Both the position numbers and the translations under genes were made by a program. A DNA stretch of 64,000 nt from the NCBI GenBank assembly GCA_000004985.1, contig GG738886.1; one strand, written 5' to 3'. The number at the start of each line of letters is the position of its first letter. The stretch's first letter is position 1. The stretch comes from Naegleria gruberi. Lineage: Eukaryota. A model generated the notes under the pieces. It worked only from the letters and a program-made list of their open reading frames with translations. It ran no database searches and had not been told where the DNA came from. This document shows positions 31,716-64,000 of this stretch, in pieces.

Positions 31716-33127
31716 TTATGCAGAAACAGTAGTAACAAGACCAAATACTAAACTAAGGGTCAAATAAATAACAAATGTCAACCCAACACTCATGGCAAAA
31801 ATAGTCCACTTGTAGATACGGTCTGAAACTTCGGTAATGGCGAAACAAGCAAATCCAATAATGAATCCACACATTAATCCTCCCAAGTGGCCAGCATAAT
31901 CTACATAATCAGAGAAACTCCACAAAAGTGTAATTACAATAATAAATCCAACACTGATGCATTGCATAATCTTTGGCTGAGTTGGAATCTTCTTCCAACG
32001 AATGATAATATTAGCAACCTTGGCACCAATCAATCCCATAATTGCTCCAGAAGCTCCAACTGAAACACTATCTGGAAGGGCAACACAGCTCAATAAATTA
32101 CCTCCAACACCTGCAATAATATAAATTGGAAGAACACGATACCACTTCCAAGTCTTTTCATAACCCATACAAATCATTACTTGAACAAATAAATTCATAA
32201 ACAAGTGCAAAAATCCTGCGTGCATTATGAGTGGAGTGAATAAACGCCAAAGTTGATATTCCTTCTTGATCTTGTAAGCAGATTTGGCTCCTAATAAGAG
32301 AAGAGTTGAACTAGATGGCCCAATAGATGGATTAGAACTATCAATACCTCCAACAGATACCTCTACAATAAAGTAAATGATTTGTACAATGGAAATCCAA
32401 AAGCAAAATGTCTTGAGCATATTCTTGTAATCTTGCTTTCTGGTTGGTGAACAAGGTGGTCCAACAAAACAAGGACAACAACACATTAAACAGGTCTAAT
32501 TCCGATTAATATTAAATAATAGTATACAAAACTTACATGATACCATTGTGGTGTAATACCATGCAAATTATAACTCCAAAACATGTCCTCATTCATATCA
32601 TATTGTTGTTGATAAGGATCTGTAGGTCTATTTTGTGATTCAACATCAACTGGTTGACCTGTTGCACTATAACTTCCACCTCCTAATAATAATAATATTA
32701 ATTTCCAATATTGTTATTATTATTGTTGTATAATTTTGTATATAATTCAATTGAAAAGGGTCAAATAGAAAAACCTACCAGCAGTACTACCAGATCCTTG
32801 AGAGAACATACCACCAAGTCTAGAAAACATGCCTCCAAACATTGATCCTCCTCCAGAAGAAGAACCTCCATTATCAGCAGCTCCACCAGCATAATTAGCA
32901 GAAGAAGGTTGATAAGAAACAGCTTCTCCCGAACTTAATACTCTTCCTGATGATGATGATGCATTGTTATTGTTGTTTGAATTGGAAGAACCATTACCGA
33001 GAGATCTTCCTCCTCCAAGGCTTCTACCACCTCCACCACCGAGGGATCTTCCTCCTCCTGATGATGGATTATTGTTATTGTTATTATTATTATCGCTTGG
33101 TAAATCACGAATTGTATGAACAGGCAT
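31716..33127 (-). CDS. Rhomboid-family intramembrane serine protease with a poly-Asn/Gly-rich N-terminal extension, complement(join(31716..32495,32537..32682,32779..33127)).
   Basis: Catalytic GASGAIMG (GxSG) and the His-containing helix AGHLGGLMCGF. LFTPLIMHAGFLHLFMNLF (H..N). Introns are 41 nt (gtaagt..aattag) and 96 nt (gtaggt..attag), and the phases check. N-terminus NNNNNNNNNPSSGGGRSLGGGGGRSLGGG. Confidence 0.8.
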
Positions 33128-39925: not shown

Positions 39926-41892
39926 TTATTTCATTAGAGAATCAATGCATTCTTTGAGAACTAATTTGTGGATTGGCTTTGTGAGTAGTTGATCAAAGAG
40001 TGGTGATTTCTCTATCAATACATCTCCTGTCAACGCTACAACCTTAATATCTCCTTGATGTCTATTTCTAAGAATTTTGGTTGCTTCAACTCCATCTAGA
40101 ACTGGCATATTCTATAAAGAAATATATTATTTTCTTTTAATTTAAAAGAAACTTACCAAATCTGTAATAATAAGCTTGTGCCTTCCCTTATCAAATAGTT
40201 CAATTAATTCTTTTCCGTCATTGGCAGCATCTACAGAATAACCAAGACTTTCAATAAGTTTTGTAATGACTCTCCTGTTCACAGAATTGTCATCAGCAAT
40301 TAGAATTTCAGCTTTCGAGTTGCTTGCCTTATTTTGACAGCAAGTTGAAAAGAGACGAATATAATTTTCTTGAATGGCTAGTTGTCTCTTGATGGAAGGA
40401 TCAATTTCGTGTAAAGATTCGCTACTATTCTTACTTCTCTCTAATTTGCATTGTACAATTTCCAAAGGAAGAATTACAGTGAATTCTGCTCCACAATTTT
40501 CATCAGATTCCAATGTAATATCTCCTCTCATGGCTTGAACATTGTGTTTTACAGTTGAAAGTCCTAATCCACTCCTTTTTAAAGGATTAAAAAATGTTTA
40601 AGCTACATCTATACGTACCCAGGAATGATTGACTGATTCAAATTATGTAACTGTGCAAAAGGTTCAAATATTTTGGCTTGTTTTGATTTTGGAATGCCAA
40701 TTCCGTTATCTTTCACTTTGAAAATGATATCTCTTTCAATAACTCCATTCACCTGTCGTTCATCTCCTTGGACAAAGCATTCCAAATCGATGGAATCTCC
40801 AATTTTTGATGCCTTTACGCCATTGGTCATAAGATTTGATATTACTTGATGTATTCTAGTTTGATTAGCTCTCACAAAGAGGTCTTTCGCTTGTTCATCA
40901 ATTGAGACGTTCACATTGACTTGAAATTGTTTCGAATAACTCTTAATGATATTTCCCATCATTTTCACACAGTTATTCAAACTAAATATTTTGAAAAACT
41001 TGGTAGCCTCTGAAGATTTATCATCTGACTTCTTTTCATGTTCAATTTTCACAAGTGTCAGAACATCCTCAATAAGATTGAGTAAAATTCCATCCGAGGA
41101 GGCAATTGTCTCAACTAACTCTCTTTGATATTCTGTTAGATTTGTCTCTCTCAACAATTCAACACTTCCCAAACTACTCAAACAAGGAGATCTAAACTCA
41201 TGACTGATATGGCGAATAAAAACTTCCTTACTTGACAAGGCCATTTCTAACTCCTTTGCTGTTTGTTCCAATTTTGTTATTTTTGATTGGAGAGCTGAGG
41301 ATGTTGACAATACATAATAGCTCAATAAATAAATACACAAAGCAGTTGCCAAATTCTCGAATATTAACTCTATCGAATTCGAAAAGATCAAACTATGAAC
41401 TATTGTTCCACAATATAAGAAAAATGTTACAAAGAATGGAGCCAACGTATAATGCAATGAAGTCATCGTGTTTGATGACATGAGTATCAAAATATACATT
41501 GGAGAAAGGAGAGCCCGATTATCTGCCACCAAGAAGTACCTAAAACAAAACAAGAGCAATGAAACAGTCATTCTAACCTTTTCCTCTGCCTCTGTAGATC
41601 TCACAAGGCCCACTCCAAGCATGGAACGAATAAATTTTCCATTCACTATAACTCCAAATATAATACTACTCGTCATGATGATTAAATGTTGCCATCCCTT
41701 ACAAAATGAATAAGCAATCAGAAGGGCATACTCCATTATTAGTACTTTTAAAATTACGTTATCCTTCATAGGAAGCGTAAGTACATGTTTAAAGAAGGGT
41801 CTTAGTCTCGGATGTAAACTATCATATATTGCTTGATCCTCCAAATCCAAGGCAAATCCTCTCAAGGGATCCACTACTAATTTTCCCACCAT
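39926..41892 (-). CDS. Membrane-bound hybrid sensor histidine kinase (multi-TM N-terminus, HisKA, HATPase_c, REC), complement(join(39926..40111,40157..40574,40619..41892)).
   Basis: H-box IRHISHEFRSPCLSSL. N/G boxes NLMTNGVKAS and VKDNGIGIP. After the 44-nt intron, G2 SGLGLS. Receiver domain ILIADDNSVNRRV...LIITDL|NMPVLDGVEATKILRN...VVALTG...LTKP is split by a 45-nt intron gtaagt..tatag. Five to six N-terminal TM helices. Confidence 0.8.
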
Positions 41893-46502: not shown

Positions 46503-49500
46503 ATGATGATCAAAACGACAGAGTTGAGATCGATATTAGTATCCGCATTATTATTCTTCTTCTTGTTAATCATAGTATTTTGTGGATCGATATTTGGGTT
46601 GAGTGGATTTACTTTCGATCAGGATGCATACAACAAGATTTGGAATGATGAAACGGAAATTTGGTTTGGTCAATCGACAGCTCTTACAGGTCAAACTAAA
46701 GAGTGAGTAATCTTTTCTCCAATTATTATAATGATGTAAAGACTAGGATATCCAATGATGACAGGAGTTCAGGCAGCCTTTAAAGAAATCAATGAAAATT
46801 CTGGTGGAGTTTGGGGAGGTAAAAAACTGAGGTTAATTACATTGGATGATGGTTATGAGCCAGCTAGAACTGTAAATAATACGATTCAGCTCATTAATAA
46901 TAACACAATATTTGGATTGATTGGATATATGGGGACAGGTACTTCGCAAGCTGCATTTCCATATCTTACTGAATCAAAACTTCCATTTATTGGTGCATTC
47001 ACGGGAGGATTGTTTTTGAGAACACCTTTTGTTTCTAATATTGTGAATATTAGAGCTAGTTATCAAGACGAAACTGTAGCTATGGTAGAATATTTAGTTA
47101 CAGTAAAAATGGTGAGGAGAATTGCAATCTTTTATCAGAATGATGCATTCGGCATGTCAGGGGTTGATGGTTCTAGTTTGGCATTGACGGCTCTTGGAAT
47201 GAGTTTAGTTTCAAGAGGTTCTTATGAAAGAAATACTATTGTTGTCGCGAAGGCAGTTTCAGATATTGTTGCTGGAAATCCACAGGCAATTATCTGCATG
47301 TCAACATACAAACCAACATTGGAATTTATCAATACAGTCAAGAATAGGACAGATTTTGACCCAAACATTGTTTTCATGACTGGCTCTTTTATTGGTTCTA
47401 ATATTTTACCATACAGAGATAGTGTTGTCATTACTCAGGTATTACCTCCACCAACCAACACAAAATACCCAATTGTTCTAGCCTATCAGAGAGCTATGAA
47501 AGCATCCAATCCAAATTTCGTGCCTTCCTATGTGGAATTGGAAGGATACATTGCTGGAAAGATGGCAGCAAATATATTGACTCAAAGAGTTTCTGGAGAT
47601 TTGACACGCAGTAATTTTCTTCAACTTGTCTATTCCACTAGTACCTATATTATTGATAATCAAGTTATTGGACCGTACAAGCAATGTAGCTCTTCTAGAT
47701 CCTTGCATTACTTTTTTGATGATCCTCAAAATCAAGATGCCTTTCTCTATCCAGTTTTACAACCACGTACAAGATTGATACCACGAAAAATTGAATCAAC
47801 ATTTGTTGCGCCTTGCTCTTGTAATCAAGGTTTGAGATCTATTTGGAAAACTTCTCAAAATGCTGATAGTTCATTTAGTGAAATTTCAGATCCAATGGTT
47901 TGGGATACTACTAGTACTACTAATTATACCTGCTTCTATGATCCAACAAAGACTCTCCCACCAATTGTATTTGGACACATATCATCTGGAGATAAGTATG
48001 ATGAAGATTTTCTAGTTGGAGTGTTATTAGCATTCAACGAAAAAAACAATCAAAAAGGTATACGTGGAAGCGTGCTAAGAATTCTCACAAAAACCCCATC
48101 CAATAGTTCTGCTTCTGCCCTTATTGATACAGTTAATTTGTTGAAAAATGATTTTAATGTACTTGGAATTTTGGGTGGATTTTTACCAAGTTCTAGTTAT
48201 GCTCAATTCGTAGATCAGTTTAAAACTCAATTACCTAACACATTGTTTCTATCGCCTTCCACATCATATGACTCTCCAACATTGAGAAGTGTATTTTCTC
48301 CAAATATTATTCATATTGGATTATCTATTCGTGAAAAGTTGGCCACCTTTTTCGATTTTGAAATGAATGCAAATGGGCATTCCAGATTTTCTGTAGTATA
48401 TGGTAAATCCACTGAAGGGGCAGCAGATTGTAAAGAGTTCAAGAACCAATTGAGCCAATTTGGATTAACTGTTGAGAGTGAATATGAACATTCATCATCT
48501 GTTACAGATTACAAGTTAGTCACACAAGCACTTGTTTCAAATGATGGTAACCCTCAATCTGTTGTTGTTCTACTTCCTGAAAATATATCCTCATTCTCTT
48601 ATTTGAGTACTGTAATCAAGGGTATTGTGAATATTGGAAAGAGAGATGACTTGTCAATATTCTTTTTGTACTTTAAATATACATCTTGGGTGGCAGATGT
48701 TTTTAACTTGATGGCTAGTCTTAATACCAAAAATAATGTATATCTTATTCAAAGATATCCTCATGTTGTGGACACTCAATTACCTTTAGTTGCAGCTTAC
48801 AATAATTTGTTCAGCAAGTATTATTCTTCTTCTGTTTCTACAACTGGATCTTTAGAAGGTTTTTTGGCTGCAAGCTTTTTAATTGAAGTTTTGGAGAATA
48901 TTTCTCCATCTGCAGATATTAATGGACCAAGTACAATTTTCACAATTTACCAAACGCAACAATTTTTGAAATATTCCATTCCATTTGGTAATTTCATTAG
49001 TAATTCTTGCAATTTGGGCATGAGAACAACCTATTTGTACAAGCTGGACGGATCGACCTTTACAAATGTCAAAATTCAATCATTTGACAAGACTAAATGT
49101 GGTCTTTCAGAAGATATTTTTTCCTCTGAAAGTTCCATTGAAAAACAACTTTTATTTGGTAGATTACTACCCGTGGAAGATGCTTCACTTCCATATGATG
49201 ATTTTAGTGTTGGTTTGAATGCATTATTCACATCTTATAACACTAAGGGAACACTGGATACTGCAACTTTGCACTTAAAAACTCTGTACTATTCAAGCAG
49301 AGAGGAAATGACCAAGAAGGCAGAGGAGCTCATTCTAAAATACAAAATTTTTGGATTTTTAGGATCTAGACTAGTCTATGATGTTACTGAACTCAAGGCT
49401 ATAATGGAAAATTACAAGATACCAATTATAGGTCCACTTTCTTCTCAGTTAGCTTTGAGAGAACCTTACTCAAGGTTTGTGGTCAATTTAAGACCTAGCA

Positions 49501-51176
49501 TTGTTGAGGAATCTGTAGTTTTGACAAGATATCTGACCTCTGTTATTACCTCAAGAAAACCAACAGTTCTCATTCTCAGCGGATCATCTTACTATTGGCA
49601 GCAAAATAGTAATAATGTTGTTTCATTTTATTCGAAGAGTATTGAAGGAGTTTCGATTTCATCAACTAGTATTTCGTCAGTCTCTTCCACTTCTGGTAGA
49701 GCTGTAGAAGGTTCTAAGCCAGACTTGGTTCTTTTGTTGGCCTCTCCAACAGAAGTTTCACAATTTCTAACCAACTATCCCACTTTTTCCTCTCTAATTG
49801 GAATACCTTCAGAAATTTCATCTATTTCTAGTTTCAAAACACTCTTAAATGATATACCTTCTTCAGTAATAATTAGTCCTCAATTTTTAGAAAGGTATGA
49901 TAAGGCTTCATCAACAAACTTTATGGCCAGAGATTTCTTGATAGACATGGCCAAATACTCAACCTCATCAAATACCTCCACACTAATGTATGAAGCTTAT
50001 GCAGTGGGTTATATGACAACAACTGTTCTCAAGTTCATGTCCCAAGCCAATATGGATTATAGCAGAGAAAAATTTGTTTCCACATTTTTCGAGAGGTCTG
50101 TATTTGAATTAGGAAATAATGAATTTGGACCGTATGGCGATGAGTGCTCCATACAATCCACTTTTGTAGTGAAAGGCTCTTGTGAATCTGTTTCTGTTTG
50201 TAATTGTAGTCAAGGCGTGAGAGCTCTTCAAATCAATTCTCTAACCTCATCCTCGGATAGTATTTTATATGAAATGAATTTCAAAACATGTGGATTGCAA
50301 GCTATTGAACCACTTCTTTCAGATGGAGCCATTGCTGGTGTTGCTGTTGGGGGTACACTAGCTTTTTTAGGTACTCTATTTGTTATACTAGTACTGATTT
50401 TCTGTGCAAGAAATAGATCCTCAGTTAAGAATGCTCCCAAGTCAGGAAATATCACTTGTGCATTTACGGATGTTCAAAGCAGTACAAAACTTTGGCAAAA
50501 TAATGAAAAGGCTATGAGAAATGCATTAGAAATTCATGACAAGATTATGAGGAAAAATCTTGAATTATTCAGAGGTTATGAGGTCAAGACAAATGGTGAT
50601 AGTTTCTTTGTTGCCTTTAAGGATCCATTTGATGCTGTTTTATGGTCTTTAACAGTTCAATTAGATTTATTGAATGCGAATTGGCCTTCAGAATTATATC
50701 ACGAATATGATTGCAGACAGGAATGGGATGAACGAATCAAGAAACCTTATTGGAGTGGATTGAGAGTGAGAATTGGACTTCATTACGGAAAGGGAGATTG
50801 CAAATGGGATAAAACCATGAAACGCTTCGACTATTTTGGAACAGTTGTAAACAAGTCAGCACGTATTGAAGCATTAGCACATGGAGGACAAGTTTTGATC
50901 AGTGAAGAATTATTGGAAGTAACTAAAGACCTCTTCCAAGATGTTAAGAAAATAGCCAGTTGTGATGAATTTCCAGCCTATCAAACCACTACAAAAGAGG
51001 AGAAGAAACTAGCTGTGGACGACAAAACCTCAACAACAGCTAGTCTCAAACATCAAAATTCTCTCTCTAGTGTATTGGGTAGGAGAAGAACTAAAATTCT
51101 AATTGATAGAACATTCACAGCCGCTGAGTTGGGAGTTTATCCATTGAAGGGACTATCTGAATCGAGCAGACTTTTC
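46503..51176 (+). CDS. Receptor-type class III adenylate/guanylate cyclase: signal peptide, three tandem periplasmic-binding-protein type I (LivK/ANF-receptor-like) modules, one TM, cyclase domain. Model join(46503..46702,46742..>51176); the 3' end is lost in the N gap.
   Basis: Signal-like exon 1 MMIKTTELRSILVSALLFFFLLIIVF. A 39-nt intron gtgagt..gtaaag gives ...ALTGQTKELGYPMMTGVQAAFKEINENSGGVWGGKKL, the LivK N-terminal signature. TM AIAGVAVGGTLAFLGTLFVILVLIFC. Cyclase motifs FTDVQSSTKLW...GYEVKTNGDSFFVAFKD...LRVRIGLHYG...DYFGTVVNKSARIEALAHGGQVLISEE. The ORF then runs into the 50-N gap at 51177. Confidence 0.8.
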
Positions 51177-51226
51177 NNNNNNNNNNNNNNNNNNNNNNNN
51201 NNNNNNNNNNNNNNNNNNNNNNNNNN
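51177..51226. other. Assembly gap (50 N).
   Basis: Run of n. Confidence 0.95.
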
Positions 51227-51230
51227 TTAG

Positions 51231-52400
51231 TATTACAGAACTTTGACAACCTTCAAACTCAATCAAATTAGCAAATAATCTATTTATATAAATTGAAACC
51301 CTGCTATGTGATGTATACATCAATGTTACAAATAATTGTTTGTTGGATATATTTCTCTATGTAATATATTGAGTTTGATTGAATACTGTCAATAACAACA
51401 CTATTAAACTGTTAAAAGGGACCTACATTTTATTTGATAATATCATTTATCTATGTATTATATCGACAAATACCTGGTATCATGATTATATTTTCTATAT
51501 TTTCAATTTGGGAAATGTCGCAATGTCAGTACTTAATTGAAATATTGCCATAATACCAATTATTGATTATATATCATGAAACTGATATTATAGACTTTAT
51601 TTGATGTATATATGAATATATGATTGAAATATTTCAATTTTGACTTTTCTTAATGACATGGGTAGTTCACTAAGGTAGTCACTTTGCCATATGACAACTA
51701 TCTAAGATGATATTGAAATCATTCTAAAATTGATATTATGAGAGTATTTGATGATTACAACATGATGAAAATGAAAAGGAATTAATTATTACAATATTTG
51801 ACATGTAAGAATGTTACCTTTGATCAATTGGATAAGTAGCTTGACAGACATTCCAATTATATAGATATTGATTTCTATTACTCAGATACTTTACAAATAT
51901 CATTTATAAGAGTAGTGGTATATTCTGTTTTTTTATACTTCTTGATATTGACTTGTCATAATATCATGAGTAATTGCTTACATGGTTAAATGACATGTAT
52001 ACTGAATGATGTCCAAATGATATGAAATTGATAGGAACCTCTTTATATGATGTTTATAACATATTGTATCAATTTGGTATTGAATCTCATTGATCTTAGG
52101 GAACTCTCCTATTAAATTTTGTAAAATCAATATTTACCTTCCTATGGCACCATTTCTAATTATTATGATATGAAATTGAATTCTACATCATTATATATCA
52201 TCTAAATCATTATGGTAAAGTTTCAATAGTGGTTCTTTTTCAAGATTTCATCCTTTTCATCATAGTTGACTATGTTTGATTGAGTTAAGAAATCTGTAAA
52301 CATGAAAGTTAAAATAAATTTGATATTCGATGTTTACTCATCAAGTGGAACATTTTCATATTAGGATTCAATATGTTTTGATGAGAAACTCAAAAGTTAT
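51231..52400. repeat. AT-rich non-coding block of diverged short repeats. The terminal roughly 300 bp (52100-52400) is copy 1 of a subtelomeric repeat unit.
   Basis: No ORF. Recurring words (tgatattgaaat, atatcatga, atgacatg). 52128-52400 aligns in inverse orientation with 62480-62780, and 52296-52400 is identical to 63206-63310. Confidence 0.6.
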
Positions 52401-52788
52401 GGGGTTTGGGGTTGGGTTTGGGTTTGGGTTTGGGTTTGGGTTTGGGTTTGGGTTTGGGTTTGGGTTTGGGTTTGGGTTTGGGTTTGGGTTTGGGTTTGGG
52501 TTTGGGTTTGGGTTTGGGTTTGGGTTTGGGTTTGGGTTTGGGTTTGGGTTTGGGTTTGGGTTTGGGTTTGGGTTTGGGTTTGGGTTTGGGTTTGGGTTTG
52601 GGTTTGGGTTTGGGTTTGGGTTTGGGTTTGGGTTTGGGTTTGGGTTTGGGTTGGGTTTGGGTTTGGGTTTGGGTTTGGGTTTGGGTTTGGGTTTGGGTCT
52701 GGGTTTGGGTTTGGGTTTGGGTTTGGGTTTGGAATTGGGTTTGGGTTTGGGTTTGGGTTTGGGTTTGGGTTTGGGTTTGGGTTTGGGT
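52401..52788 (+). repeat. Telomere-like hexamer array (TTTGGG)n, G-rich on the + strand, internal to the scaffold.
   Basis: About 64 tandem units of gggttt, with a few variants (ttggg, gggtct, ggaattggg). It runs directly into the N gap. Confidence 0.9.
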
Positions 52789-55700
52789 NNNNNNNNNNNN
52801 NNNNNNNNNNNNNNNNNNNNNNNNNNNNNNNNNNNNNNNNNNNNNNNNNNNNNNNNNNNNNNNNNNNNNNNNNNNNNNNNNNNNNNNNNNNNNNNNNNNN
52901 NNNNNNNNNNNNNNNNNNNNNNNNNNNNNNNNNNNNNNNNNNNNNNNNNNNNNNNNNNNNNNNNNNNNNNNNNNNNNNNNNNNNNNNNNNNNNNNNNNNN
53001 NNNNNNNNNNNNNNNNNNNNNNNNNNNNNNNNNNNNNNNNNNNNNNNNNNNNNNNNNNNNNNNNNNNNNNNNNNNNNNNNNNNNNNNNNNNNNNNNNNNN
53101 NNNNNNNNNNNNNNNNNNNNNNNNNNNNNNNNNNNNNNNNNNNNNNNNNNNNNNNNNNNNNNNNNNNNNNNNNNNNNNNNNNNNNNNNNNNNNNNNNNNN
53201 NNNNNNNNNNNNNNNNNNNNNNNNNNNNNNNNNNNNNNNNNNNNNNNNNNNNNNNNNNNNNNNNNNNNNNNNNNNNNNNNNNNNNNNNNNNNNNNNNNNN
53301 NNNNNNNNNNNNNNNNNNNNNNNNNNNNNNNNNNNNNNNNNNNNNNNNNNNNNNNNNNNNNNNNNNNNNNNNNNNNNNNNNNNNNNNNNNNNNNNNNNNN
53401 NNNNNNNNNNNNNNNNNNNNNNNNNNNNNNNNNNNNNNNNNNNNNNNNNNNNNNNNNNNNNNNNNNNNNNNNNNNNNNNNNNNNNNNNNNNNNNNNNNNN
53501 NNNNNNNNNNNNNNNNNNNNNNNNNNNNNNNNNNNNNNNNNNNNNNNNNNNNNNNNNNNNNNNNNNNNNNNNNNNNNNNNNNNNNNNNNNNNNNNNNNNN
53601 NNNNNNNNNNNNNNNNNNNNNNNNNNNNNNNNNNNNNNNNNNNNNNNNNNNNNNNNNNNNNNNNNNNNNNNNNNNNNNNNNNNNNNNNNNNNNNNNNNNN
53701 NNNNNNNNNNNNNNNNNNNNNNNNNNNNNNNNNNNNNNNNNNNNNNNNNNNNNNNNNNNNNNNNNNNNNNNNNNNNNNNNNNNNNNNNNNNNNNNNNNNN
53801 NNNNNNNNNNNNNNNNNNNNNNNNNNNNNNNNNNNNNNNNNNNNNNNNNNNNNNNNNNNNNNNNNNNNNNNNNNNNNNNNNNNNNNNNNNNNNNNNNNNN
53901 NNNNNNNNNNNNNNNNNNNNNNNNNNNNNNNNNNNNNNNNNNNNNNNNNNNNNNNNNNNNNNNNNNNNNNNNNNNNNNNNNNNNNNNNNNNNNNNNNNNN
54001 NNNNNNNNNNNNNNNNNNNNNNNNNNNNNNNNNNNNNNNNNNNNNNNNNNNNNNNNNNNNNNNNNNNNNNNNNNNNNNNNNNNNNNNNNNNNNNNNNNNN
54101 NNNNNNNNNNNNNNNNNNNNNNNNNNNNNNNNNNNNNNNNNNNNNNNNNNNNNNNNNNNNNNNNNNNNNNNNNNNNNNNNNNNNNNNNNNNNNNNNNNNN
54201 NNNNNNNNNNNNNNNNNNNNNNNNNNNNNNNNNNNNNNNNNNNNNNNNNNNNNNNNNNNNNNNNNNNNNNNNNNNNNNNNNNNNNNNNNNNNNNNNNNNN
54301 NNNNNNNNNNNNNNNNNNNNNNNNNNNNNNNNNNNNNNNNNNNNNNNNNNNNNNNNNNNNNNNNNNNNNNNNNNNNNNNNNNNNNNNNNNNNNNNNNNNN
54401 NNNNNNNNNNNNNNNNNNNNNNNNNNNNNNNNNNNNNNNNNNNNNNNNNNNNNNNNNNNNNNNNNNNNNNNNNNNNNNNNNNNNNNNNNNNNNNNNNNNN
54501 NNNNNNNNNNNNNNNNNNNNNNNNNNNNNNNNNNNNNNNNNNNNNNNNNNNNNNNNNNNNNNNNNNNNNNNNNNNNNNNNNNNNNNNNNNNNNNNNNNNN
54601 NNNNNNNNNNNNNNNNNNNNNNNNNNNNNNNNNNNNNNNNNNNNNNNNNNNNNNNNNNNNNNNNNNNNNNNNNNNNNNNNNNNNNNNNNNNNNNNNNNNN
54701 NNNNNNNNNNNNNNNNNNNNNNNNNNNNNNNNNNNNNNNNNNNNNNNNNNNNNNNNNNNNNNNNNNNNNNNNNNNNNNNNNNNNNNNNNNNNNNNNNNNN
54801 NNNNNNNNNNNNNNNNNNNNNNNNNNNNNNNNNNNNNNNNNNNNNNNNNNNNNNNNNNNNNNNNNNNNNNNNNNNNNNNNNNNNNNNNNNNNNNNNNNNN
54901 NNNNNNNNNNNNNNNNNNNNNNNNNNNNNNNNNNNNNNNNNNNNNNNNNNNNNNNNNNNNNNNNNNNNNNNNNNNNNNNNNNNNNNNNNNNNNNNNNNNN
55001 NNNNNNNNNNNNNNNNNNNNNNNNNNNNNNNNNNNNNNNNNNNNNNNNNNNNNNNNNNNNNNNNNNNNNNNNNNNNNNNNNNNNNNNNNNNNNNNNNNNN
55101 NNNNNNNNNNNNNNNNNNNNNNNNNNNNNNNNNNNNNNNNNNNNNNNNNNNNNNNNNNNNNNNNNNNNNNNNNNNNNNNNNNNNNNNNNNNNNNNNNNNN
55201 NNNNNNNNNNNNNNNNNNNNNNNNNNNNNNNNNNNNNNNNNNNNNNNNNNNNNNNNNNNNNNNNNNNNNNNNNNNNNNNNNNNNNNNNNNNNNNNNNNNN
55301 NNNNNNNNNNNNNNNNNNNNNNNNNNNNNNNNNNNNNNNNNNNNNNNNNNNNNNNNNNNNNNNNNNNNNNNNNNNNNNNNNNNNNNNNNNNNNNNNNNNN
55401 NNNNNNNNNNNNNNNNNNNNNNNNNNNNNNNNNNNNNNNNNNNNNNNNNNNNNNNNNNNNNNNNNNNNNNNNNNNNNNNNNNNNNNNNNNNNNNNNNNNN
55501 NNNNNNNNNNNNNNNNNNNNNNNNNNNNNNNNNNNNNNNNNNNNNNNNNNNNNNNNNNNNNNNNNNNNNNNNNNNNNNNNNNNNNNNNNNNNNNNNNNNN
55601 NNNNNNNNNNNNNNNNNNNNNNNNNNNNNNNNNNNNNNNNNNNNNNNNNNNNNNNNNNNNNNNNNNNNNNNNNNNNNNNNNNNNNNNNNNNNNNNNNNNN

Positions 55701-58700
55701 NNNNNNNNNNNNNNNNNNNNNNNNNNNNNNNNNNNNNNNNNNNNNNNNNNNNNNNNNNNNNNNNNNNNNNNNNNNNNNNNNNNNNNNNNNNNNNNNNNNN
55801 NNNNNNNNNNNNNNNNNNNNNNNNNNNNNNNNNNNNNNNNNNNNNNNNNNNNNNNNNNNNNNNNNNNNNNNNNNNNNNNNNNNNNNNNNNNNNNNNNNNN
55901 NNNNNNNNNNNNNNNNNNNNNNNNNNNNNNNNNNNNNNNNNNNNNNNNNNNNNNNNNNNNNNNNNNNNNNNNNNNNNNNNNNNNNNNNNNNNNNNNNNNN
56001 NNNNNNNNNNNNNNNNNNNNNNNNNNNNNNNNNNNNNNNNNNNNNNNNNNNNNNNNNNNNNNNNNNNNNNNNNNNNNNNNNNNNNNNNNNNNNNNNNNNN
56101 NNNNNNNNNNNNNNNNNNNNNNNNNNNNNNNNNNNNNNNNNNNNNNNNNNNNNNNNNNNNNNNNNNNNNNNNNNNNNNNNNNNNNNNNNNNNNNNNNNNN
56201 NNNNNNNNNNNNNNNNNNNNNNNNNNNNNNNNNNNNNNNNNNNNNNNNNNNNNNNNNNNNNNNNNNNNNNNNNNNNNNNNNNNNNNNNNNNNNNNNNNNN
56301 NNNNNNNNNNNNNNNNNNNNNNNNNNNNNNNNNNNNNNNNNNNNNNNNNNNNNNNNNNNNNNNNNNNNNNNNNNNNNNNNNNNNNNNNNNNNNNNNNNNN
56401 NNNNNNNNNNNNNNNNNNNNNNNNNNNNNNNNNNNNNNNNNNNNNNNNNNNNNNNNNNNNNNNNNNNNNNNNNNNNNNNNNNNNNNNNNNNNNNNNNNNN
56501 NNNNNNNNNNNNNNNNNNNNNNNNNNNNNNNNNNNNNNNNNNNNNNNNNNNNNNNNNNNNNNNNNNNNNNNNNNNNNNNNNNNNNNNNNNNNNNNNNNNN
56601 NNNNNNNNNNNNNNNNNNNNNNNNNNNNNNNNNNNNNNNNNNNNNNNNNNNNNNNNNNNNNNNNNNNNNNNNNNNNNNNNNNNNNNNNNNNNNNNNNNNN
56701 NNNNNNNNNNNNNNNNNNNNNNNNNNNNNNNNNNNNNNNNNNNNNNNNNNNNNNNNNNNNNNNNNNNNNNNNNNNNNNNNNNNNNNNNNNNNNNNNNNNN
56801 NNNNNNNNNNNNNNNNNNNNNNNNNNNNNNNNNNNNNNNNNNNNNNNNNNNNNNNNNNNNNNNNNNNNNNNNNNNNNNNNNNNNNNNNNNNNNNNNNNNN
56901 NNNNNNNNNNNNNNNNNNNNNNNNNNNNNNNNNNNNNNNNNNNNNNNNNNNNNNNNNNNNNNNNNNNNNNNNNNNNNNNNNNNNNNNNNNNNNNNNNNNN
57001 NNNNNNNNNNNNNNNNNNNNNNNNNNNNNNNNNNNNNNNNNNNNNNNNNNNNNNNNNNNNNNNNNNNNNNNNNNNNNNNNNNNNNNNNNNNNNNNNNNNN
57101 NNNNNNNNNNNNNNNNNNNNNNNNNNNNNNNNNNNNNNNNNNNNNNNNNNNNNNNNNNNNNNNNNNNNNNNNNNNNNNNNNNNNNNNNNNNNNNNNNNNN
57201 NNNNNNNNNNNNNNNNNNNNNNNNNNNNNNNNNNNNNNNNNNNNNNNNNNNNNNNNNNNNNNNNNNNNNNNNNNNNNNNNNNNNNNNNNNNNNNNNNNNN
57301 NNNNNNNNNNNNNNNNNNNNNNNNNNNNNNNNNNNNNNNNNNNNNNNNNNNNNNNNNNNNNNNNNNNNNNNNNNNNNNNNNNNNNNNNNNNNNNNNNNNN
57401 NNNNNNNNNNNNNNNNNNNNNNNNNNNNNNNNNNNNNNNNNNNNNNNNNNNNNNNNNNNNNNNNNNNNNNNNNNNNNNNNNNNNNNNNNNNNNNNNNNNN
57501 NNNNNNNNNNNNNNNNNNNNNNNNNNNNNNNNNNNNNNNNNNNNNNNNNNNNNNNNNNNNNNNNNNNNNNNNNNNNNNNNNNNNNNNNNNNNNNNNNNNN
57601 NNNNNNNNNNNNNNNNNNNNNNNNNNNNNNNNNNNNNNNNNNNNNNNNNNNNNNNNNNNNNNNNNNNNNNNNNNNNNNNNNNNNNNNNNNNNNNNNNNNN
57701 NNNNNNNNNNNNNNNNNNNNNNNNNNNNNNNNNNNNNNNNNNNNNNNNNNNNNNNNNNNNNNNNNNNNNNNNNNNNNNNNNNNNNNNNNNNNNNNNNNNN
57801 NNNNNNNNNNNNNNNNNNNNNNNNNNNNNNNNNNNNNNNNNNNNNNNNNNNNNNNNNNNNNNNNNNNNNNNNNNNNNNNNNNNNNNNNNNNNNNNNNNNN
57901 NNNNNNNNNNNNNNNNNNNNNNNNNNNNNNNNNNNNNNNNNNNNNNNNNNNNNNNNNNNNNNNNNNNNNNNNNNNNNNNNNNNNNNNNNNNNNNNNNNNN
58001 NNNNNNNNNNNNNNNNNNNNNNNNNNNNNNNNNNNNNNNNNNNNNNNNNNNNNNNNNNNNNNNNNNNNNNNNNNNNNNNNNNNNNNNNNNNNNNNNNNNN
58101 NNNNNNNNNNNNNNNNNNNNNNNNNNNNNNNNNNNNNNNNNNNNNNNNNNNNNNNNNNNNNNNNNNNNNNNNNNNNNNNNNNNNNNNNNNNNNNNNNNNN
58201 NNNNNNNNNNNNNNNNNNNNNNNNNNNNNNNNNNNNNNNNNNNNNNNNNNNNNNNNNNNNNNNNNNNNNNNNNNNNNNNNNNNNNNNNNNNNNNNNNNNN
58301 NNNNNNNNNNNNNNNNNNNNNNNNNNNNNNNNNNNNNNNNNNNNNNNNNNNNNNNNNNNNNNNNNNNNNNNNNNNNNNNNNNNNNNNNNNNNNNNNNNNN
58401 NNNNNNNNNNNNNNNNNNNNNNNNNNNNNNNNNNNNNNNNNNNNNNNNNNNNNNNNNNNNNNNNNNNNNNNNNNNNNNNNNNNNNNNNNNNNNNNNNNNN
58501 NNNNNNNNNNNNNNNNNNNNNNNNNNNNNNNNNNNNNNNNNNNNNNNNNNNNNNNNNNNNNNNNNNNNNNNNNNNNNNNNNNNNNNNNNNNNNNNNNNNN
58601 NNNNNNNNNNNNNNNNNNNNNNNNNNNNNNNNNNNNNNNNNNNNNNNNNNNNNNNNNNNNNNNNNNNNNNNNNNNNNNNNNNNNNNNNNNNNNNNNNNNN

Positions 58701-61073
58701 NNNNNNNNNNNNNNNNNNNNNNNNNNNNNNNNNNNNNNNNNNNNNNNNNNNNNNNNNNNNNNNNNNNNNNNNNNNNNNNNNNNNNNNNNNNNNNNNNNNN
58801 NNNNNNNNNNNNNNNNNNNNNNNNNNNNNNNNNNNNNNNNNNNNNNNNNNNNNNNNNNNNNNNNNNNNNNNNNNNNNNNNNNNNNNNNNNNNNNNNNNNN
58901 NNNNNNNNNNNNNNNNNNNNNNNNNNNNNNNNNNNNNNNNNNNNNNNNNNNNNNNNNNNNNNNNNNNNNNNNNNNNNNNNNNNNNNNNNNNNNNNNNNNN
59001 NNNNNNNNNNNNNNNNNNNNNNNNNNNNNNNNNNNNNNNNNNNNNNNNNNNNNNNNNNNNNNNNNNNNNNNNNNNNNNNNNNNNNNNNNNNNNNNNNNNN
59101 NNNNNNNNNNNNNNNNNNNNNNNNNNNNNNNNNNNNNNNNNNNNNNNNNNNNNNNNNNNNNNNNNNNNNNNNNNNNNNNNNNNNNNNNNNNNNNNNNNNN
59201 NNNNNNNNNNNNNNNNNNNNNNNNNNNNNNNNNNNNNNNNNNNNNNNNNNNNNNNNNNNNNNNNNNNNNNNNNNNNNNNNNNNNNNNNNNNNNNNNNNNN
59301 NNNNNNNNNNNNNNNNNNNNNNNNNNNNNNNNNNNNNNNNNNNNNNNNNNNNNNNNNNNNNNNNNNNNNNNNNNNNNNNNNNNNNNNNNNNNNNNNNNNN
59401 NNNNNNNNNNNNNNNNNNNNNNNNNNNNNNNNNNNNNNNNNNNNNNNNNNNNNNNNNNNNNNNNNNNNNNNNNNNNNNNNNNNNNNNNNNNNNNNNNNNN
59501 NNNNNNNNNNNNNNNNNNNNNNNNNNNNNNNNNNNNNNNNNNNNNNNNNNNNNNNNNNNNNNNNNNNNNNNNNNNNNNNNNNNNNNNNNNNNNNNNNNNN
59601 NNNNNNNNNNNNNNNNNNNNNNNNNNNNNNNNNNNNNNNNNNNNNNNNNNNNNNNNNNNNNNNNNNNNNNNNNNNNNNNNNNNNNNNNNNNNNNNNNNNN
59701 NNNNNNNNNNNNNNNNNNNNNNNNNNNNNNNNNNNNNNNNNNNNNNNNNNNNNNNNNNNNNNNNNNNNNNNNNNNNNNNNNNNNNNNNNNNNNNNNNNNN
59801 NNNNNNNNNNNNNNNNNNNNNNNNNNNNNNNNNNNNNNNNNNNNNNNNNNNNNNNNNNNNNNNNNNNNNNNNNNNNNNNNNNNNNNNNNNNNNNNNNNNN
59901 NNNNNNNNNNNNNNNNNNNNNNNNNNNNNNNNNNNNNNNNNNNNNNNNNNNNNNNNNNNNNNNNNNNNNNNNNNNNNNNNNNNNNNNNNNNNNNNNNNNN
60001 NNNNNNNNNNNNNNNNNNNNNNNNNNNNNNNNNNNNNNNNNNNNNNNNNNNNNNNNNNNNNNNNNNNNNNNNNNNNNNNNNNNNNNNNNNNNNNNNNNNN
60101 NNNNNNNNNNNNNNNNNNNNNNNNNNNNNNNNNNNNNNNNNNNNNNNNNNNNNNNNNNNNNNNNNNNNNNNNNNNNNNNNNNNNNNNNNNNNNNNNNNNN
60201 NNNNNNNNNNNNNNNNNNNNNNNNNNNNNNNNNNNNNNNNNNNNNNNNNNNNNNNNNNNNNNNNNNNNNNNNNNNNNNNNNNNNNNNNNNNNNNNNNNNN
60301 NNNNNNNNNNNNNNNNNNNNNNNNNNNNNNNNNNNNNNNNNNNNNNNNNNNNNNNNNNNNNNNNNNNNNNNNNNNNNNNNNNNNNNNNNNNNNNNNNNNN
60401 NNNNNNNNNNNNNNNNNNNNNNNNNNNNNNNNNNNNNNNNNNNNNNNNNNNNNNNNNNNNNNNNNNNNNNNNNNNNNNNNNNNNNNNNNNNNNNNNNNNN
60501 NNNNNNNNNNNNNNNNNNNNNNNNNNNNNNNNNNNNNNNNNNNNNNNNNNNNNNNNNNNNNNNNNNNNNNNNNNNNNNNNNNNNNNNNNNNNNNNNNNNN
60601 NNNNNNNNNNNNNNNNNNNNNNNNNNNNNNNNNNNNNNNNNNNNNNNNNNNNNNNNNNNNNNNNNNNNNNNNNNNNNNNNNNNNNNNNNNNNNNNNNNNN
60701 NNNNNNNNNNNNNNNNNNNNNNNNNNNNNNNNNNNNNNNNNNNNNNNNNNNNNNNNNNNNNNNNNNNNNNNNNNNNNNNNNNNNNNNNNNNNNNNNNNNN
60801 NNNNNNNNNNNNNNNNNNNNNNNNNNNNNNNNNNNNNNNNNNNNNNNNNNNNNNNNNNNNNNNNNNNNNNNNNNNNNNNNNNNNNNNNNNNNNNNNNNNN
60901 NNNNNNNNNNNNNNNNNNNNNNNNNNNNNNNNNNNNNNNNNNNNNNNNNNNNNNNNNNNNNNNNNNNNNNNNNNNNNNNNNNNNNNNNNNNNNNNNNNNN
61001 NNNNNNNNNNNNNNNNNNNNNNNNNNNNNNNNNNNNNNNNNNNNNNNNNNNNNNNNNNNNNNNNNNNNNNNNN
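52789..61073. other. Assembly gap (8,285 N).
   Basis: Run of n. The two giant ORFs of 2,972 and 2,901 aa across it are artefacts of translating N. Confidence 0.95.
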
Positions 61074-61236
61074 GTTTGGGTATTTTGTTGGTTTTTTTAG
61101 TAAAGTTTTAAAAAAAGTATATAGTTCTTATCTAGTTATCGAGTTGTGGTGTAAATGTGTTGTTTTTAAGCTATTCGAAAGTAGTAACGATTTCGATATT
61201 CCGTTACTTTGCGTCACTTTGCGGACGGACTTATAT

Positions 61237-62214
61237 TCAATAAATTAATTTCATAGCTACTAGATTGGGATTAGTAGATTCATCAAACTTGTCTTCAACA
61301 AGAATTATTCTTAACAAGTATTCCATCAAAATTCTAGAACTAATTCTCTTTTGTTTGTCAATTTGTAGACAAGCTATTATAGCCCATTTTAGGTCTGAAT
61401 TGGGTAATTTCTTATTGAAAGCTTTCAAGATGAATTTATCAATTTCTGGTTGAGTCTTGAAATCTCTATGGAAATCAGTTGTCTTATCTTCAGATAAAAG
61501 TCTGTAAATGATTACACCAAGACACCAAATATCCAAAGATGATCCAACTTCATTAGTGGGAGGATTGTTATGTAATCTGCCAATATTTGTACAAGTAATT
61601 CTACTACTATCCACAACTTCGCACATTTCAAAATCTGCTAATCTAATTTTCACATTACCAGTTTTTTCATCATATTCTTCAACAAATATATTATCCAATT
61701 CAATATCTCTATGCACTACTTTCGAATTTTGATCTGCATGTAATGCTCGGAGAGCTTTAGAAAGCTGGTAAGTCAATAATGCAATTGTGTTTTCGGATAA
61801 ATTTGTCTTTTTAGAGAGTTGTTGCAAATCTCCAATTTCATAAAACGGCATCAATGTATACACATAACTGTCTCCTTCATAAAATCCCAAAATTTCAACA
61901 ATATGATGATGATTCAATAAAGATACAACCCGAGCAGCATTCCTCTCCCTCTCCAAAACTTCGTATTGTTCTGGTTCCTCCTCTTCATCAACCCTCCTTA
62001 CCACCCGAACAACAATATTGCGAATATTATTGTTATTATTCTTCTCGTAGTCAGAAACATTTTGATTAGCCTCATCCCCAACAACTTCCGAGAGACATTG
62101 TAGTACCGTTGCTCTTTCGCTATTGCTTTTGAGTATTTTTATTTGTGAATATTTACAGCCAGTTAATTGTTCCAATTCCACGAAAAAGTAGGTCTTGTGG
62201 AGTCTGCTTGACAT
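61237..62214 (-). CDS. Divergent protein kinase-like protein (CAMK-like catalytic loop, atypical DFE motif); possibly a pseudokinase. Subtelomeric.
   Basis: HRDIELDN catalytic loop, ADFEMCE in place of DFG, SLDIWCLGVIIYRLL (subdomain IX), no glycine-rich loop. ATG at 62214. 325 aa in a single exon. Confidence 0.55.
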   Translation of the reverse strand: MSSRLHKTYFFVELEQLTGCKYSQIKILKSNSERATVLQCLSEVVGDEANQNVSDYEKNNNNNIRNIVVRVVRRVDEEEEPEQYEVLERERNAARVVSLLNHHHIVEILGFYEGDSYVYTLMPFYEIGDLQQLSKKTNLSENTIALLTYQLSKALRALHADQNSKVVHRDIELDNIFVEEYDEKTGNVKIRLADFEMCEVVDSSRITCTNIGRLHNNPPTNEVGSSLDIWCLGVIIYRLLSEDKTTDFHRDFKTQPEIDKFILKAFNKKLPNSDLKWAIIACLQIDKQKRISSRILMEYLLRIILVEDKFDESTNPNLVAMKLIY

Positions 62215-62479
62215 ATGCTGAATGAATGGAAGGAATAAAGTGTAGGCAATTTTTTGAAGACTAGTACTTTTTTCGCTTGAAAAACAGGCAACAAATATTT
62301 AGGATAAAAAATAGCCTAAATGTCTACGAAAATAGTAAGGTGCTTATATTTCCATGGCAAAAGTTCTTGGTGTTGCCTTGTATATCATCATTAACAATAT
62401 TCATAATCACTTTCATATCAAATTATAAAAGTTCATGTCTGTAGATATAAAAGTATAGATTGAAAAGGGAAGATGTGAA

Positions 62480-62790
62480 GTACAATTGGTCAACAATAAC
62501 TTGTTAGTTTCTCATCAAAACATATTAAATCCTGACATGAAAATGTTCCATTTGATGAGTAAACATCGAATATCAAATTAATTTTCACTTTCATATTTAA
62601 AGATTTCTTCCCTCAATCACACATTGTCTACTATGATGAAAAGGTGGAAATCTTGAAAAAGGACCACCTATTGAAACTTTACCAACATGATGTAGATGAT
62701 ATATAATGATGTAGAATTCAATTTCATATCATAAAAATCAGAAATGGTACCATGGGAAGGTAAATGTTGATATATTATGGTTGACTTTAG
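62480..62790 (-). repeat. Subtelomeric repeat unit, inverted copy 2.
   Basis: The reverse complement of 62641-62775 aligns with 52128-52260 at about 90% identity. 62513-62590 is the reverse complement of 52300-52400. Confidence 0.7.
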
Positions 62791-62799
62791 AGAAAGACA

Positions 62800-63125
62800 A
62801 GTCAGACCAACTCTATCAACTTCAATCAACAATATATACATGAAAATGCTCCATTCGATGAGTAGAGATATAATATCAAGTTTATTTTAACTTTTATATT
62901 CACGATTTCAACTCTAACATGCCATCTGATAAACTATGGACACGGATGAATTTCTGGAAAATGACCACTTTATGAAACTTTACCATCATGTTATACATCT
63001 CTACTAATGTATATGGTTCAATTTTCAGACAGTTTGGTGACATTCTTTCTTTCAATAAGGCAAAGGGTGAATTTCAAGGTTGTCTTGGAAGATCAGGAGG
63101 AATCTTGAATATAGAGAACCACATC
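62800..63125 (-). repeat. Subtelomeric repeat unit, inverted copy 3, more diverged.
   Basis: The reverse complement of 62840-63020 aligns with 52218-52390 (atggtaaagtttca...gaaagttaaaataaa[c/t]ttgatatt...catttt). Confidence 0.6.
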
Positions 63126-63155
63126 CTCAATCTACAAAATACATATCAATCGATC

Positions 63156-63205
63156 NNNNNNNNNNNNNNNNNNNNNNNNNNNNNNNNNNNNNNNNNNNNN
63201 NNNNN
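63156..63205. other. Assembly gap (50 N).
   Basis: Run of n. Confidence 0.95.
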
Positions 63206-63310
63206 CTGTAAACATGAAAGTTAAAATAAATTTGATATTCGATGTTTACTCATCAAGTGGAACATTTTCATATTAGGATTCAATATGTTTTGATGAGAAA
63301 CTCAAAAGTT
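63206..63310 (+). repeat. Subtelomeric repeat unit, direct partial copy 4, 100% identical to 52296-52400.
   Basis: 105/105 identical (ctgtaaacatgaaagttaaaataaatttgatattcgatgtttactcatcaagtggaac...aaagttat). It then diverges into unique sequence instead of telomeric repeats. Confidence 0.85.
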
Positions 63311-63620
63311 ATAGTTGACCTCTTTTACCTCACATCTTCCCTTTTCACTCTATACTTTTATATCTACAGACATGAACTTTTGAAATTTGATATGAGAGTG
63401 ATTATAGATGTTGTTAATGATGATATATACTATATAATCTCATTAAACGATTTTGAAATTAACATTCTTCCTATGGTATCATTTTACAAATTTTAATCTT
63501 ACATTATTTACAAAGTTAATATTTTATAAATTGAAAAACTAAATATACCACGTTTTCCCACTCATCATTTCCGATCGAATGATATAAAATTTTATGATAT
63601 TTGAATAAGTTTATAATTTT

Positions 63621-64000
63621 GGGCTAGGGTTTGAAGGTTGGGTTTGGGTTTGGGTTTGGGTTTGGGTTTGGGTTTGGGTTTGGGTTTGGGTTTGGGTTTG
63701 GGTTTGGGTTTGGGTTTGGGTTTGGGTTTGGGTTTGGGTTTGGGTTTGGGTTTGGGTTTGGGTTTGGGTTTGGGTTTGGGTTTGGGTTTGGGTTTGGGTT
63801 TGGGTTTGGGTTTGGGTTTGGGTTTGGGTTTGGGTTTGGGTTTGGGTTTGGGTTTGGGTTTGGGTTTGGGTTTGGGTTTGGGTTTGGGTTTGGGTTTGGG
63901 TTTGGGTTTGGGTTTGGGTTTGGGTTTGGGTTTGGGTTTGGGTTTGGGTTTGGGTTTGGGTTTGGGTTTGGGTTTGGGTTTGGGTTTGGGTTTGGGTTTC
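63621..64000 (+). repeat. Telomere-like (TTTGGG)n array running off the window end; probable chromosome or scaffold terminus, G-strand 5' to 3'.
   Basis: After a degenerate start (gggctagggtttgaaggttgggtttggg), the gggttt hexamer is unbroken to position 64000. Confidence 0.85.

Follow-up and report, generated by a model that had tools for sequence, protein, structure and literature searches.

The right-hand end of one Naegleria gruberi scaffold carries two arrays of (TTTGGG)n, and the question it raises is whether the inner array lies inside the chromosome or was put there by assembly. The window analysed is a stretch of 64,000 nucleotides of contig GG738886.1 from the JGI draft assembly of N. 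gruberi NEG-M (GCA_000004985.1). We read the region as the right end of a scaffold of N. gruberi NEG-M, with (TTTGGG)n as the telomere repeat of the species. Four contigs, a main contig A and the small contigs B, C and D, are separated by three runs of N, at 51177–51226 (50 N), 52789–61073 (8,285 N) and 63156–63205 (50 N), and scaffolding alone links the last 12.8 kb. The first 50-N gap, between contigs A and B, is nominal and is entered by an adenylate-cyclase ORF (46755–51176). Contig B (1.56 kb) starts with AT-rich, non-coding DNA (51227–52125, + strand, 25% GC), in which all ORFs are shorter than 50 aa and comparison with contigs C and D gives no significant match (scores no higher than those of shuffles). 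The gap between contigs B and C is sized, and its content is presumably repetitive; the gap between contigs C and D is again nominal, and contig D, at 795 bp, is roughly the size of a single Sanger read. The 8,285-N gap separates the first array from a stray GTTTGGG, behind which come a kinase-like ORF, repeat-unit copies and then the second array. All of the features listed in an earlier note on this DNA were found, at the coordinates given there or a few bases off.

Both arrays were delimited by TRF and a motif scan. The first occupies 52401–52788 on the + strand and makes up the last 388 bp of contig B (TRF period 6, 64.7 copies, 97% matches at 52402–52788, (GGGTTT)~65). It has an irregular start (GGGGTTTGGGGTTGGG), followed by 39 perfect repeats, with three variants within the final 140 bp. 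The terminal array (63618–63999, + strand; TRF period 6, 63.5 copies, 97% matches, (TTTGGG)~64) has a degenerate start (TTTTGGGCTAGGGTTTGAAGGTTGGG) and then about 59 perfect repeats, which stop one base short of the end of the window. A three-repeat 18-mer, allowing up to three mismatches, gave 121 matches, all on the + strand and all within the two arrays, where shuffled sequences predict 0.03; the same scan of the first 51 kb gave no other array and no three-repeat match. Both arrays are tandem TnGm repeats with copy numbers far above chance, and qualify as telomere-type. The second has its G strand on + and reaches base 63999 of 64000, whereas the first ends a contig, not a scaffold. Because the window stops one base past the second array, it cannot by itself show the scaffold end. 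The third occurrence of the repeat is a GTTTGGG at 61074–61080 (+ strand), the first seven bases of contig C after the 8,285-N gap, in the same orientation as both arrays. All three are G-rich on the + strand, and their arrangement is head-to-tail. Counting every phase and both orientations, a telomere 7-mer would fall by chance at one of the five contig boundaries with a probability of about 0.004. The G-richness of both arrays on the + strand and the stray 7-mer directly after the gap had been noticed before, and both observations were borne out.

According to the main text of a 2013 survey, TTTGGG is the candidate telomere of N. gruberi, identified from scaffold termini of the same JGI assembly (Fulneckova et al. 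2013, Genome Biol Evol, PMC3622300). This agrees with the earlier assignment of the region to a chromosome end with TTTGGG telomeres; the motif itself, which had been called unusual as a telomere unit, is not new, having been published there. The survey and the present locus have species, assembly and hexamer in common, but the main text of the survey gives no locus-level account, and contains no repeat unit, no healed junction and no mention of the present scaffold. It does state that many genomes with terminal arrays also have internal blocks, and that experimental tests of telomere candidates are still required (PMC3622300). The candidate-level status of the terminal position, and the survey's call for experiments (PMC3622300), are what can be said for the arrays being ordinary microsatellites and not telomeres. 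We consider this very improbable, given the TnGm form with the G-rich strand towards the scaffold end, the report of TTTGGG at scaffold termini in the main text of PMC3622300, the lack of any other array or three-repeat match in 51 kb, and the degenerate proximal repeats, which are typical of telomere bases. A literature search on Naegleria telomeres, subtelomeres and telomerase RNA returned the 2013 survey as the sole relevant item and nothing on telomerase RNA. Nanopore data exist for N. gruberi (PMC12695648). Papers reporting Nanopore work on N. fowleri and N. gruberi contain no discussion of telomeres.

Paramecium telomeres are a mixture of TTGGGG and TTTGGG. The likeness to the present arrays lies in the telomeric hexamer TTTGGG and in occasional TTGGG or GGGG variants, but the N. 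gruberi arrays are essentially pure TTTGGG. Moreover, Paramecium is a ciliate, whereas N. gruberi is a heterolobosean with the standard genetic code; the long ORFs in the window end at all three stops. A ciliate origin of the DNA, with a Paramecium-type repeat, was rejected on the standard code and on exact matches to three N. gruberi proteins.

The DNA adjoining the arrays contains a shared block of 391 bp, the subtelomeric unit, copies of which (B, C1, C2 and D) were found in the last 12.8 kb; a search with an nhmmer profile gave none in positions 1–51176. The sole full-length copy, C1 (391 bp; 62771–62381, − strand), is inverted relative to copies B and D and is 90% identical to each. In the alignment, copy B (52126–52400, + strand) comprises unit positions 1–275, and copy D (63206–63427, + strand) comprises positions 168–389, from the first base of contig D. 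Copy C2 (about 62838–63024, − strand) is diverged, with 73–75% identity to the others, and stands in tandem with C1 at an offset of about 302 bp. The repeat family and its inverted and direct orientations had been described correctly, but the size of roughly 300 bp given for it corresponds to the tandem offset in contig C and not to the 391-bp block. Copies B and D are identical at 107 of 107 positions (52294–52400 and 63206–63312), where an identical stretch of 105 bp (63206–63310) had been reported. Copy D then continues for a further 115 bp of unit (63313–63427; 90% identical to 62495–62381 inverted), and is followed by unique, AT-rich DNA adjoining the terminal array (63428–63617, + strand, 20.5% GC). 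The 320 bp of unique DNA previously placed before that array is in fact 305 bp, of which the first 115 bp are unit and about 190 bp are unique; this 190-bp part, compared with the DNA downstream of C1, scored no higher than shuffles. Copy D has no assembly sequence on its left flank, and at least about 170 bp would be lost at the 63156–63205 gap if copy D is as complete as copy B. The unit gave no Rfam match at E≤1 and no tRNA, in a search for a known RNA or tRNA-derived element. The inverted arms formed by C1 and D (62381–62602 and 63206–63427) are 90% complementary. Their flanks, ending in GCCTTG and beginning with TACTAT, share no duplication, and a transposon with terminal inverted repeats was rejected for lack of a target-site duplication.

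The junction between unit and array lies in contig B. Copy B aligns with C1 up to ...AAAAGTTAT at 52400 and there changes to GGGGTTTGGGGTTGGG(TTTGGG)n, while D and C1 carry on beyond the cut point with A/TGTTGACC... and extend 115 bp past unit position 275, where B stops. The array does not begin where the repeat ends, as had been thought, but cuts the unit at position 275 of 391. Because the array truncates the unit instead of following its end, break-and-heal telomere addition is indicated: the sequence of contig B bears the signature of a chromosome end that broke inside the 391-bp unit at position 275 and was healed by telomere addition. Irregular first repeats, seen at the junction in contig D too, argue for a genuine telomere base over random ligation into an array. 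At ...AAAAGTTAT/GGGGTTT the terminal T alone can pair with the repeat (a 1-nt overlap); a GTT lies 2 nt upstream. De novo telomere addition is known from subtelomeric deletions in Plasmodium falciparum, from yeast and ciliates, and from human terminal deletions. The present junction resembles these cases in that repeats follow immediately on non-telomeric DNA, at a position past which an intact copy runs on, and in its irregular first repeats. It differs in that the truncated and the intact copy may be separate loci, in the overlap of a single T, and in a context known from sequence only. The unit/telomere junction is a new detail of the present locus, whereas the motif was already known.

A kinase-like ORF of 325 aa (EFC41428.1, NAEGRDRAFT_70853) lies at 61237–62214 on the − strand and matches Pfam Pkinase with E=1.3e-26. 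When it was aligned to STK33 and ULK1, VRRV was found for IKKV, HRDIELDN for HRDLKLEN and DFE for DFG; in this alignment the ORF does not show the set of features of an active kinase (beta3 Lys, HRDxK...N loop, DFG and Gly-rich loop). The kinase fold is matched by Pfam but catalytic residues are missing, and NAEGRDRAFT_70853 is probably a pseudokinase. Among 5.8 billion proteins, no relative other than itself was found at E≤1e-10, and the protein is alone in its 90% cluster, an orphan. A subtelomeric family of kinase genes was rejected on this search. The gene had been taken for a divergent kinase-like paralog of the kind carried by subtelomeres; it is kinase-like, but the search at E≤1e-10 gave no paralog. 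As regards a Y'-like multi-copy element, the gene was single in our searches, in which identical copies may have been collapsed. Because the gene is without a paralog, the distal segment is not demonstrably multi-copy in the manner of Y'. NAEGRDRAFT_70853 sits in a chain of read-sized contigs with unproven order. A search for other contigs encoding the kinase, a neighbouring gene or two small ORFs of contigs C and D gave no record for these; a rhomboid gene lying 30 kb away was the only query with a return, a single ENA metagenome contig. Metagenome scans with the core of the repeat unit and with the left edge of contig C gave no match.

The earlier note had set a true interstitial tract against alternative ends concatenated by scaffolding. 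These are the right alternatives, the former ranking ahead of the latter, and each falling short of an even chance. We lean towards a healed tract that is truly internal, lying head-to-tail in front of a distal add-on segment, but hold this reading tentatively. A chromosome end would have broken within the 391-bp unit at position 275, and telomerase would have added repeats straight onto the break, healing it. A distal segment would later have been copied onto the healed tract, leaving the tract inside the chromosome; this segment would comprise unassembled DNA, probably repetitive and several kb long, together with the kinase-like gene, the two inverted units, the intact unit, the unique 190 bp and the terminal telomere. 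As the likely mechanism, a strand of the short telomere would have invaded a TTTGGG seed on a different chromosome, near its end, and break-induced replication would then have run out to that end. We infer the continuity over the 8.3-kb gap, the order of events and the recombination mechanism.

An internal position is favoured because contig C opens with GTTTGGG in the orientation of the arrays (chance about 0.004). In either orientation of contig C, such a sequence cannot be a natural terminus, and implies that a telomere tract passes here into non-telomeric DNA. A false join of two ends is disfavoured because joins through telomere reads give head-to-head arrays, and these are head-to-tail. 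The left 1.3 kb of contig C is unique within the window, so that its placement distal to contig A by mate pairs is not obviously confounded by repeats; in addition, the internal reading uses every contig once and in the order of the scaffolder. Several observations weaken it. The array, which no sequenced molecule crosses, ends contig B and is followed by 8,285 N, and contig C has 7 bases of repeat compared with about 385 bp in contigs B and D, which is odd if a long perfect array adjoins C. At 8 kb, an internal telomere tract would be exceptional in length, and the gap may therefore contain other DNA. The internal array is near-perfect (97%), like an active telomere. Nor is the distal segment, with its orphan kinase-like gene, demonstrably multi-copy. 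Finally, the 107 of 107 identical positions of B and D stand beside an identity of only 90% of each to C1. For ordinary paralogs at 90%, the chance of this would be 0.9^107, or about 1e-5 by our own arithmetic. The simplest explanation would be one locus in two states, and an internal tract then calls for a duplication of very recent date or for homogenisation among terminal units.

It is a real possibility, though one we would not bet on, that B and D are two versions of one chromosome end, from homologues, culture sub-populations or recently exchanged ends, placed in series by the scaffolder. The short version B would have broken in the unit and healed, with its array a true terminus, while D would keep the whole unit and the 190 bp; contig C with the kinase-like gene would be mis-placed or come from a different end, and the internal position would be an artefact. 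The identity of B and D from the first base of D to the exact branch point is what a forked assembly graph would show, and the read-sized contig D (795 bp) suggests few supporting reads. Both arrays are about 385 bp, which points to a length limited by reads and not by biology; the first array abuts a gap, and its initial 39 repeats are no less clean than the terminal array. A poorly supported scaffold end is also indicated by the small size of the contigs and the nominal 50-N gaps. As in known gap artefacts of draft scaffolds, the array closes its contig, and a sized N gap and very small contigs come after it; the difference is that the arrangement is head-to-tail, not head-to-head, and that the next contig opens with a telomere 7-mer in matching orientation. 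Two alternative ends would leave this GTTTGGG to chance (about 0.004), would require the links that put the unique contig C about 10 kb beyond contig A to be spurious, and would need three end types to account for B, D and C together. They would also normally be expected to give overlapping positions, and not a positive gap of 8.3 kb. Improbable, in our view, is a cloning or assembly chimera at the B junction or at the GTTTGGG of contig C, such as could arise if sheared and telomeric fragments were ligated together in a Sanger library; the genome would then have a D-type end only. A small fraction of inserts in Sanger shotgun libraries is chimeric, which counts in favour of this explanation, and the region is built of very small contigs. 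However, the B-type path is the main 1.56-kb contig and the D-type path is read-length, so that B is at least equally supported, and the repeats that open the B junction are irregular (GGGGTTTGGGGTTGGG), as at the natural junction in D, and do not set in mid-array at an arbitrary phase.

An interstitial telomeric sequence has non-telomeric DNA on both sides within one contiguous sequence; here the right flank is 8,285 N, with the 7-nt GTTTGGG beyond. The tract is not to be filed as an interstitial telomeric sequence on sequence evidence, and its internal status comes from scaffolding only. Telomere-primed recombination accounts for the X-ITS-Y' arrangement of yeast and for the (TTAGGG)n islands between human subtelomeric duplicons. 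The locus resembles both in having a head-to-tail tract at the border between chromosome-specific DNA and a distal block that ends in a true telomere. It differs from both in that continuity across the tract is not sequenced and the distal block, whose kinase-like gene gave no paralog at E≤1e-10, may not be multi-copy. The interstitial TG1-3 tracts of yeast measure about 50–150 bp, and the implied tract or gap of about 8 kb is far longer. A yeast-like remodelling of the end, in which a terminal break was healed by telomerase and a distal block of about 11 kb was then captured from another end, leaving a multi-kb head-to-tail internal tract, is conceivable, and we give it somewhat less than even weight.

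In many eukaryotes, healed ends and internal telomere tracts belong to the standard biology of subtelomeres, and the locus is either ordinary subtelomere biology or an assembly ambiguity. Its importance beyond curation is small, and its practical value is a flag on the last ~12.8 kb of this scaffold in the draft assembly. If the internal tract is true, the 391-bp unit would be a ready marker for locating other ends, and the locus would be a first example of chromosome-end repair and exchange in Naegleria, and the first documented case of chromosome healing and a telomere-bounded subtelomeric duplication in a heterolobosean.

The sequence is discontinuous over the final 12.8 kb of the window. 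Three runs of N (50 N at 51177–51226, 8,285 N at 52789–61073 and 50 N at 63156–63205) divide the scaffold end into four contigs, here called A (up to 51176), B (51227–52788), C (61074–63155) and D (63206–64000). The 50-N gaps are nominal placeholders, and D has the length of one read. The GC content is 33%, and long open reading frames (ORFs) end in all three standard stop codons; this use of stops excludes a ciliate, the source at first suspected from the motif. Three ORFs encode exact N. gruberi proteins (the kinase-like EFC41428.1, EFC41349.1 and EFC41423.1), and the window therefore belongs to the 2010 JGI Sanger draft of strain NEG-M.

The terminal block is preceded by a gene at 46755–51176 (+) for a large adenylate/guanylate cyclase of receptor type that carries periplasmic-binding-protein domains; its ORF enters the first 50-N gap, and its 3′ end is thus unassembled. 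Just upstream are genes for a histidine kinase (40609–41892, −) and an LRR protein (35384–36784, −). Two adjacent ORFs on the same strand, 27290–28426 and 28452–30080 (+), are separated by 25 bp. The second encodes the C-terminal half of Peptidase_M1 together with ERAP1_C, and the pair (27290–30080) looks like a single M1 aminopeptidase gene interrupted by either a frameshift or a short intron. A tandem repeat at 21137–21297 (AAATTGATGG) has a period of 10–11/21 bp and is imperfect, with 65–81% matches. In a public 'metagenome' assembly (ENA ERZ929261, PRJEB11402), a contig of 2.1 kb is 99.4% identical to 30682–32754 and codes for an identical rhomboid protein, indicating that the sample contained either N. 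gruberi itself or a strain or haplotype very close to it.

The kinase-like gene that the earlier note placed inside the terminal block is present at 61237–62214 (−) and encodes 325 aa, EFC41428.1. A protein-kinase fold is recognised by Pfam (E=1.3e-26), and ULK1 and STK33 are matched at ~1e-13. The protein has Arg at the position of the β3 lysine (VRRV), a catalytic loop (HRDIELDN) without its lysine, and DFE instead of DFG. Because these two lysines, the DFG glycine and the glycine-rich loop are missing, it is probably a pseudokinase, judging from its sequence. The view of the gene as a paralog typical of subtelomeres was not supported: among 5.8 billion proteins no relative other than itself was found at E≤1e-10, and it is the sole member of its 90% cluster. 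Collapsed identical copies of the gene are possible.

Both telomere arrays noticed earlier were recovered with Tandem Repeats Finder, as (GGGTTT)64.7 at 52402–52788 and (TTTGGG)63.5 at 63618–63999, each on the + strand with 97% matches. A three-repeat probe allowing up to three mismatches gave 121 matches, all on the + strand and all within the two arrays; shuffled sequences lead to an expectation of 0.03. The first array forms the final ~385 bp of contig B and the terminal array is equally long, the length of both being set by the reach of anchored Sanger reads. The first 39 repeats of the first array are clean. Three variants (TTGGG, TCTGGG and TTTGGAATTGGG) lie in its final 140 bp, at 52645–52739, and could be low-quality read tails at a contig end or genuine decay of an internal tract. 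No variant repeats were seen in the terminal array. The TTTGGG motif and its reading as a telomere are already known: that reading is correct, and was published in a 2013 survey of eukaryotic telomeres which covered the same N. gruberi assembly (PMC3622300). According to the survey, many genomes with terminal arrays show internal blocks as well, and experimental confirmation is still required (PMC3622300). A literature search on the telomeres, subtelomeres and telomerase RNA of Naegleria gave nothing beyond this survey, and the Nanopore papers for N. fowleri and N. gruberi leave telomeres undiscussed; Nanopore reads of N. gruberi are described in PMC12695648.

The repeats near the arrays share a common block of 391 bp, as determined by pairwise BLAST, local alignment and an nhmmer profile. 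The sole complete copy is C1 in contig C (62771–62381, −). Copy B (52126–52400, +) covers unit positions 1–275 and copy D (63206–63427, +) positions 168–389, both with 90% identity to C1. Copy C2 (~63024–62838, −) is 73–75% identical and forms a tandem pair with C1, the offset being ~302 bp. The family is confined to the terminal block, and the nhmmer profile detected no copy in the first 51 kb of the window. Where copies B and D overlap (52294–52400 and 63206–63312), 107 of 107 positions are identical; the identity reported before stands, and its length is corrected from 105 to 107 bp. The first 167 unit positions are present in copy B and lacking in its twin D, so that at least ~170 bp must be missing between C and D. 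In contig D, 190 bp of unique, very AT-rich DNA (20.5% GC) separate the unit from the array. No resemblance was found between the unique part of D and the DNA beyond C1, or between the left 900 bp of B and contigs C and D. The unit block had no match to Rfam or tRNA, and no target-site duplication was found for the inverted pair C1 and D.

At the end of the overlap both contigs read ...AAAAGTTAT, after which B continues as GGGGTTTGGGGTTGGG(TTTGGG)n and D as AGTTGACC..., with C1 agreeing with D. Since B departs from D and C1 in mid-unit, the array in B takes the place of the last 116 bp of the unit, and does not begin where the repeat copy ends, as the earlier note had it. A telomere tract in mid-unit, with irregular first repeats and two other copies continuing, very probably records an end that broke and was then healed by telomerase. 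The terminal array of D opens with irregular repeats too (TTTTGGGCTAGGGTTTGAAGGTTGGG). The main alternative to healing, a chimeric clone at the B junction, is unlikely: the assembler used the B-type path for its main contig, and random ligation would join the array at perfect repeats. By its sequence the junction qualifies as de novo telomere addition, provided that the truncated and the intact copy are one locus.

The first array may be a real head-to-tail tract inside the chromosome, to which we give just short of an even chance. The stray motif noticed after the large gap, GTTTGGG, proved to be the opening bases of contig C, in the same orientation as the array. With every phase and both orientations counted, telomere 7-mers occur at 41 of 51,176 positions, and from this background the chance that any of the five contig boundaries outside the arrays carries one is ~0.004. 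At the edge of C it is a natural terminus in neither orientation, and therefore indicates a run of repeats that gives way to ordinary DNA. Had two chromosome ends been falsely joined via telomere reads, the arrays would stand head-to-head, and head-to-tail was observed. Each contig is used once in the scaffold order, and as the left 1.3 kb of C are unique, repeats give no obvious reason to doubt its placement ~10 kb beyond A.

Alternatively, B and D could be two versions of an end that the scaffolder placed in series, an explanation we take seriously while leaning somewhat against it. The 107 bp common to B and D are identical, yet each copy differs from C1 by 10%; by our own arithmetic the probability of this is ~1e-5 if they are ordinary paralogs. 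The identity extends from the first base of D, itself only one read, to the branch point, as in an assembly-graph fork. The repeat in contig C amounts to just 7 bases, compared with ~385 in B and D, an internal tract of 8 kb would be unusually long, and the cleanness of the first 39 repeats also favours an end. The 'internal telomere array' may be a product of scaffolding. Chimeric artefacts are an improbable source of the arrangement, and it is scarcely credible that the arrays are not telomeres at all. The first array was not classed as an interstitial telomeric sequence, because non-telomeric DNA does not lie on both sides of it in one contiguous sequence.

A healed break within a subtelomeric repeat is an ordinary case of a known process. 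If the first array does lie inside the chromosome, the end would have broken within a unit and healed, and the resulting short telomere would have invaded a TTTGGG seed of another end. Break-induced replication would then have copied the invaded end out to its tip, leaving the healed tract behind within the chromosome. The identity of B and D would be accounted for if unit, 190 bp and telomere form a homogenised cap common to several ends, which would also explain why D fails to extend leftwards. Such an architecture would work like the X-ITS-Y′-telomere arrangement of yeast and the (TTAGGG)n islands between human subtelomeric duplicons.
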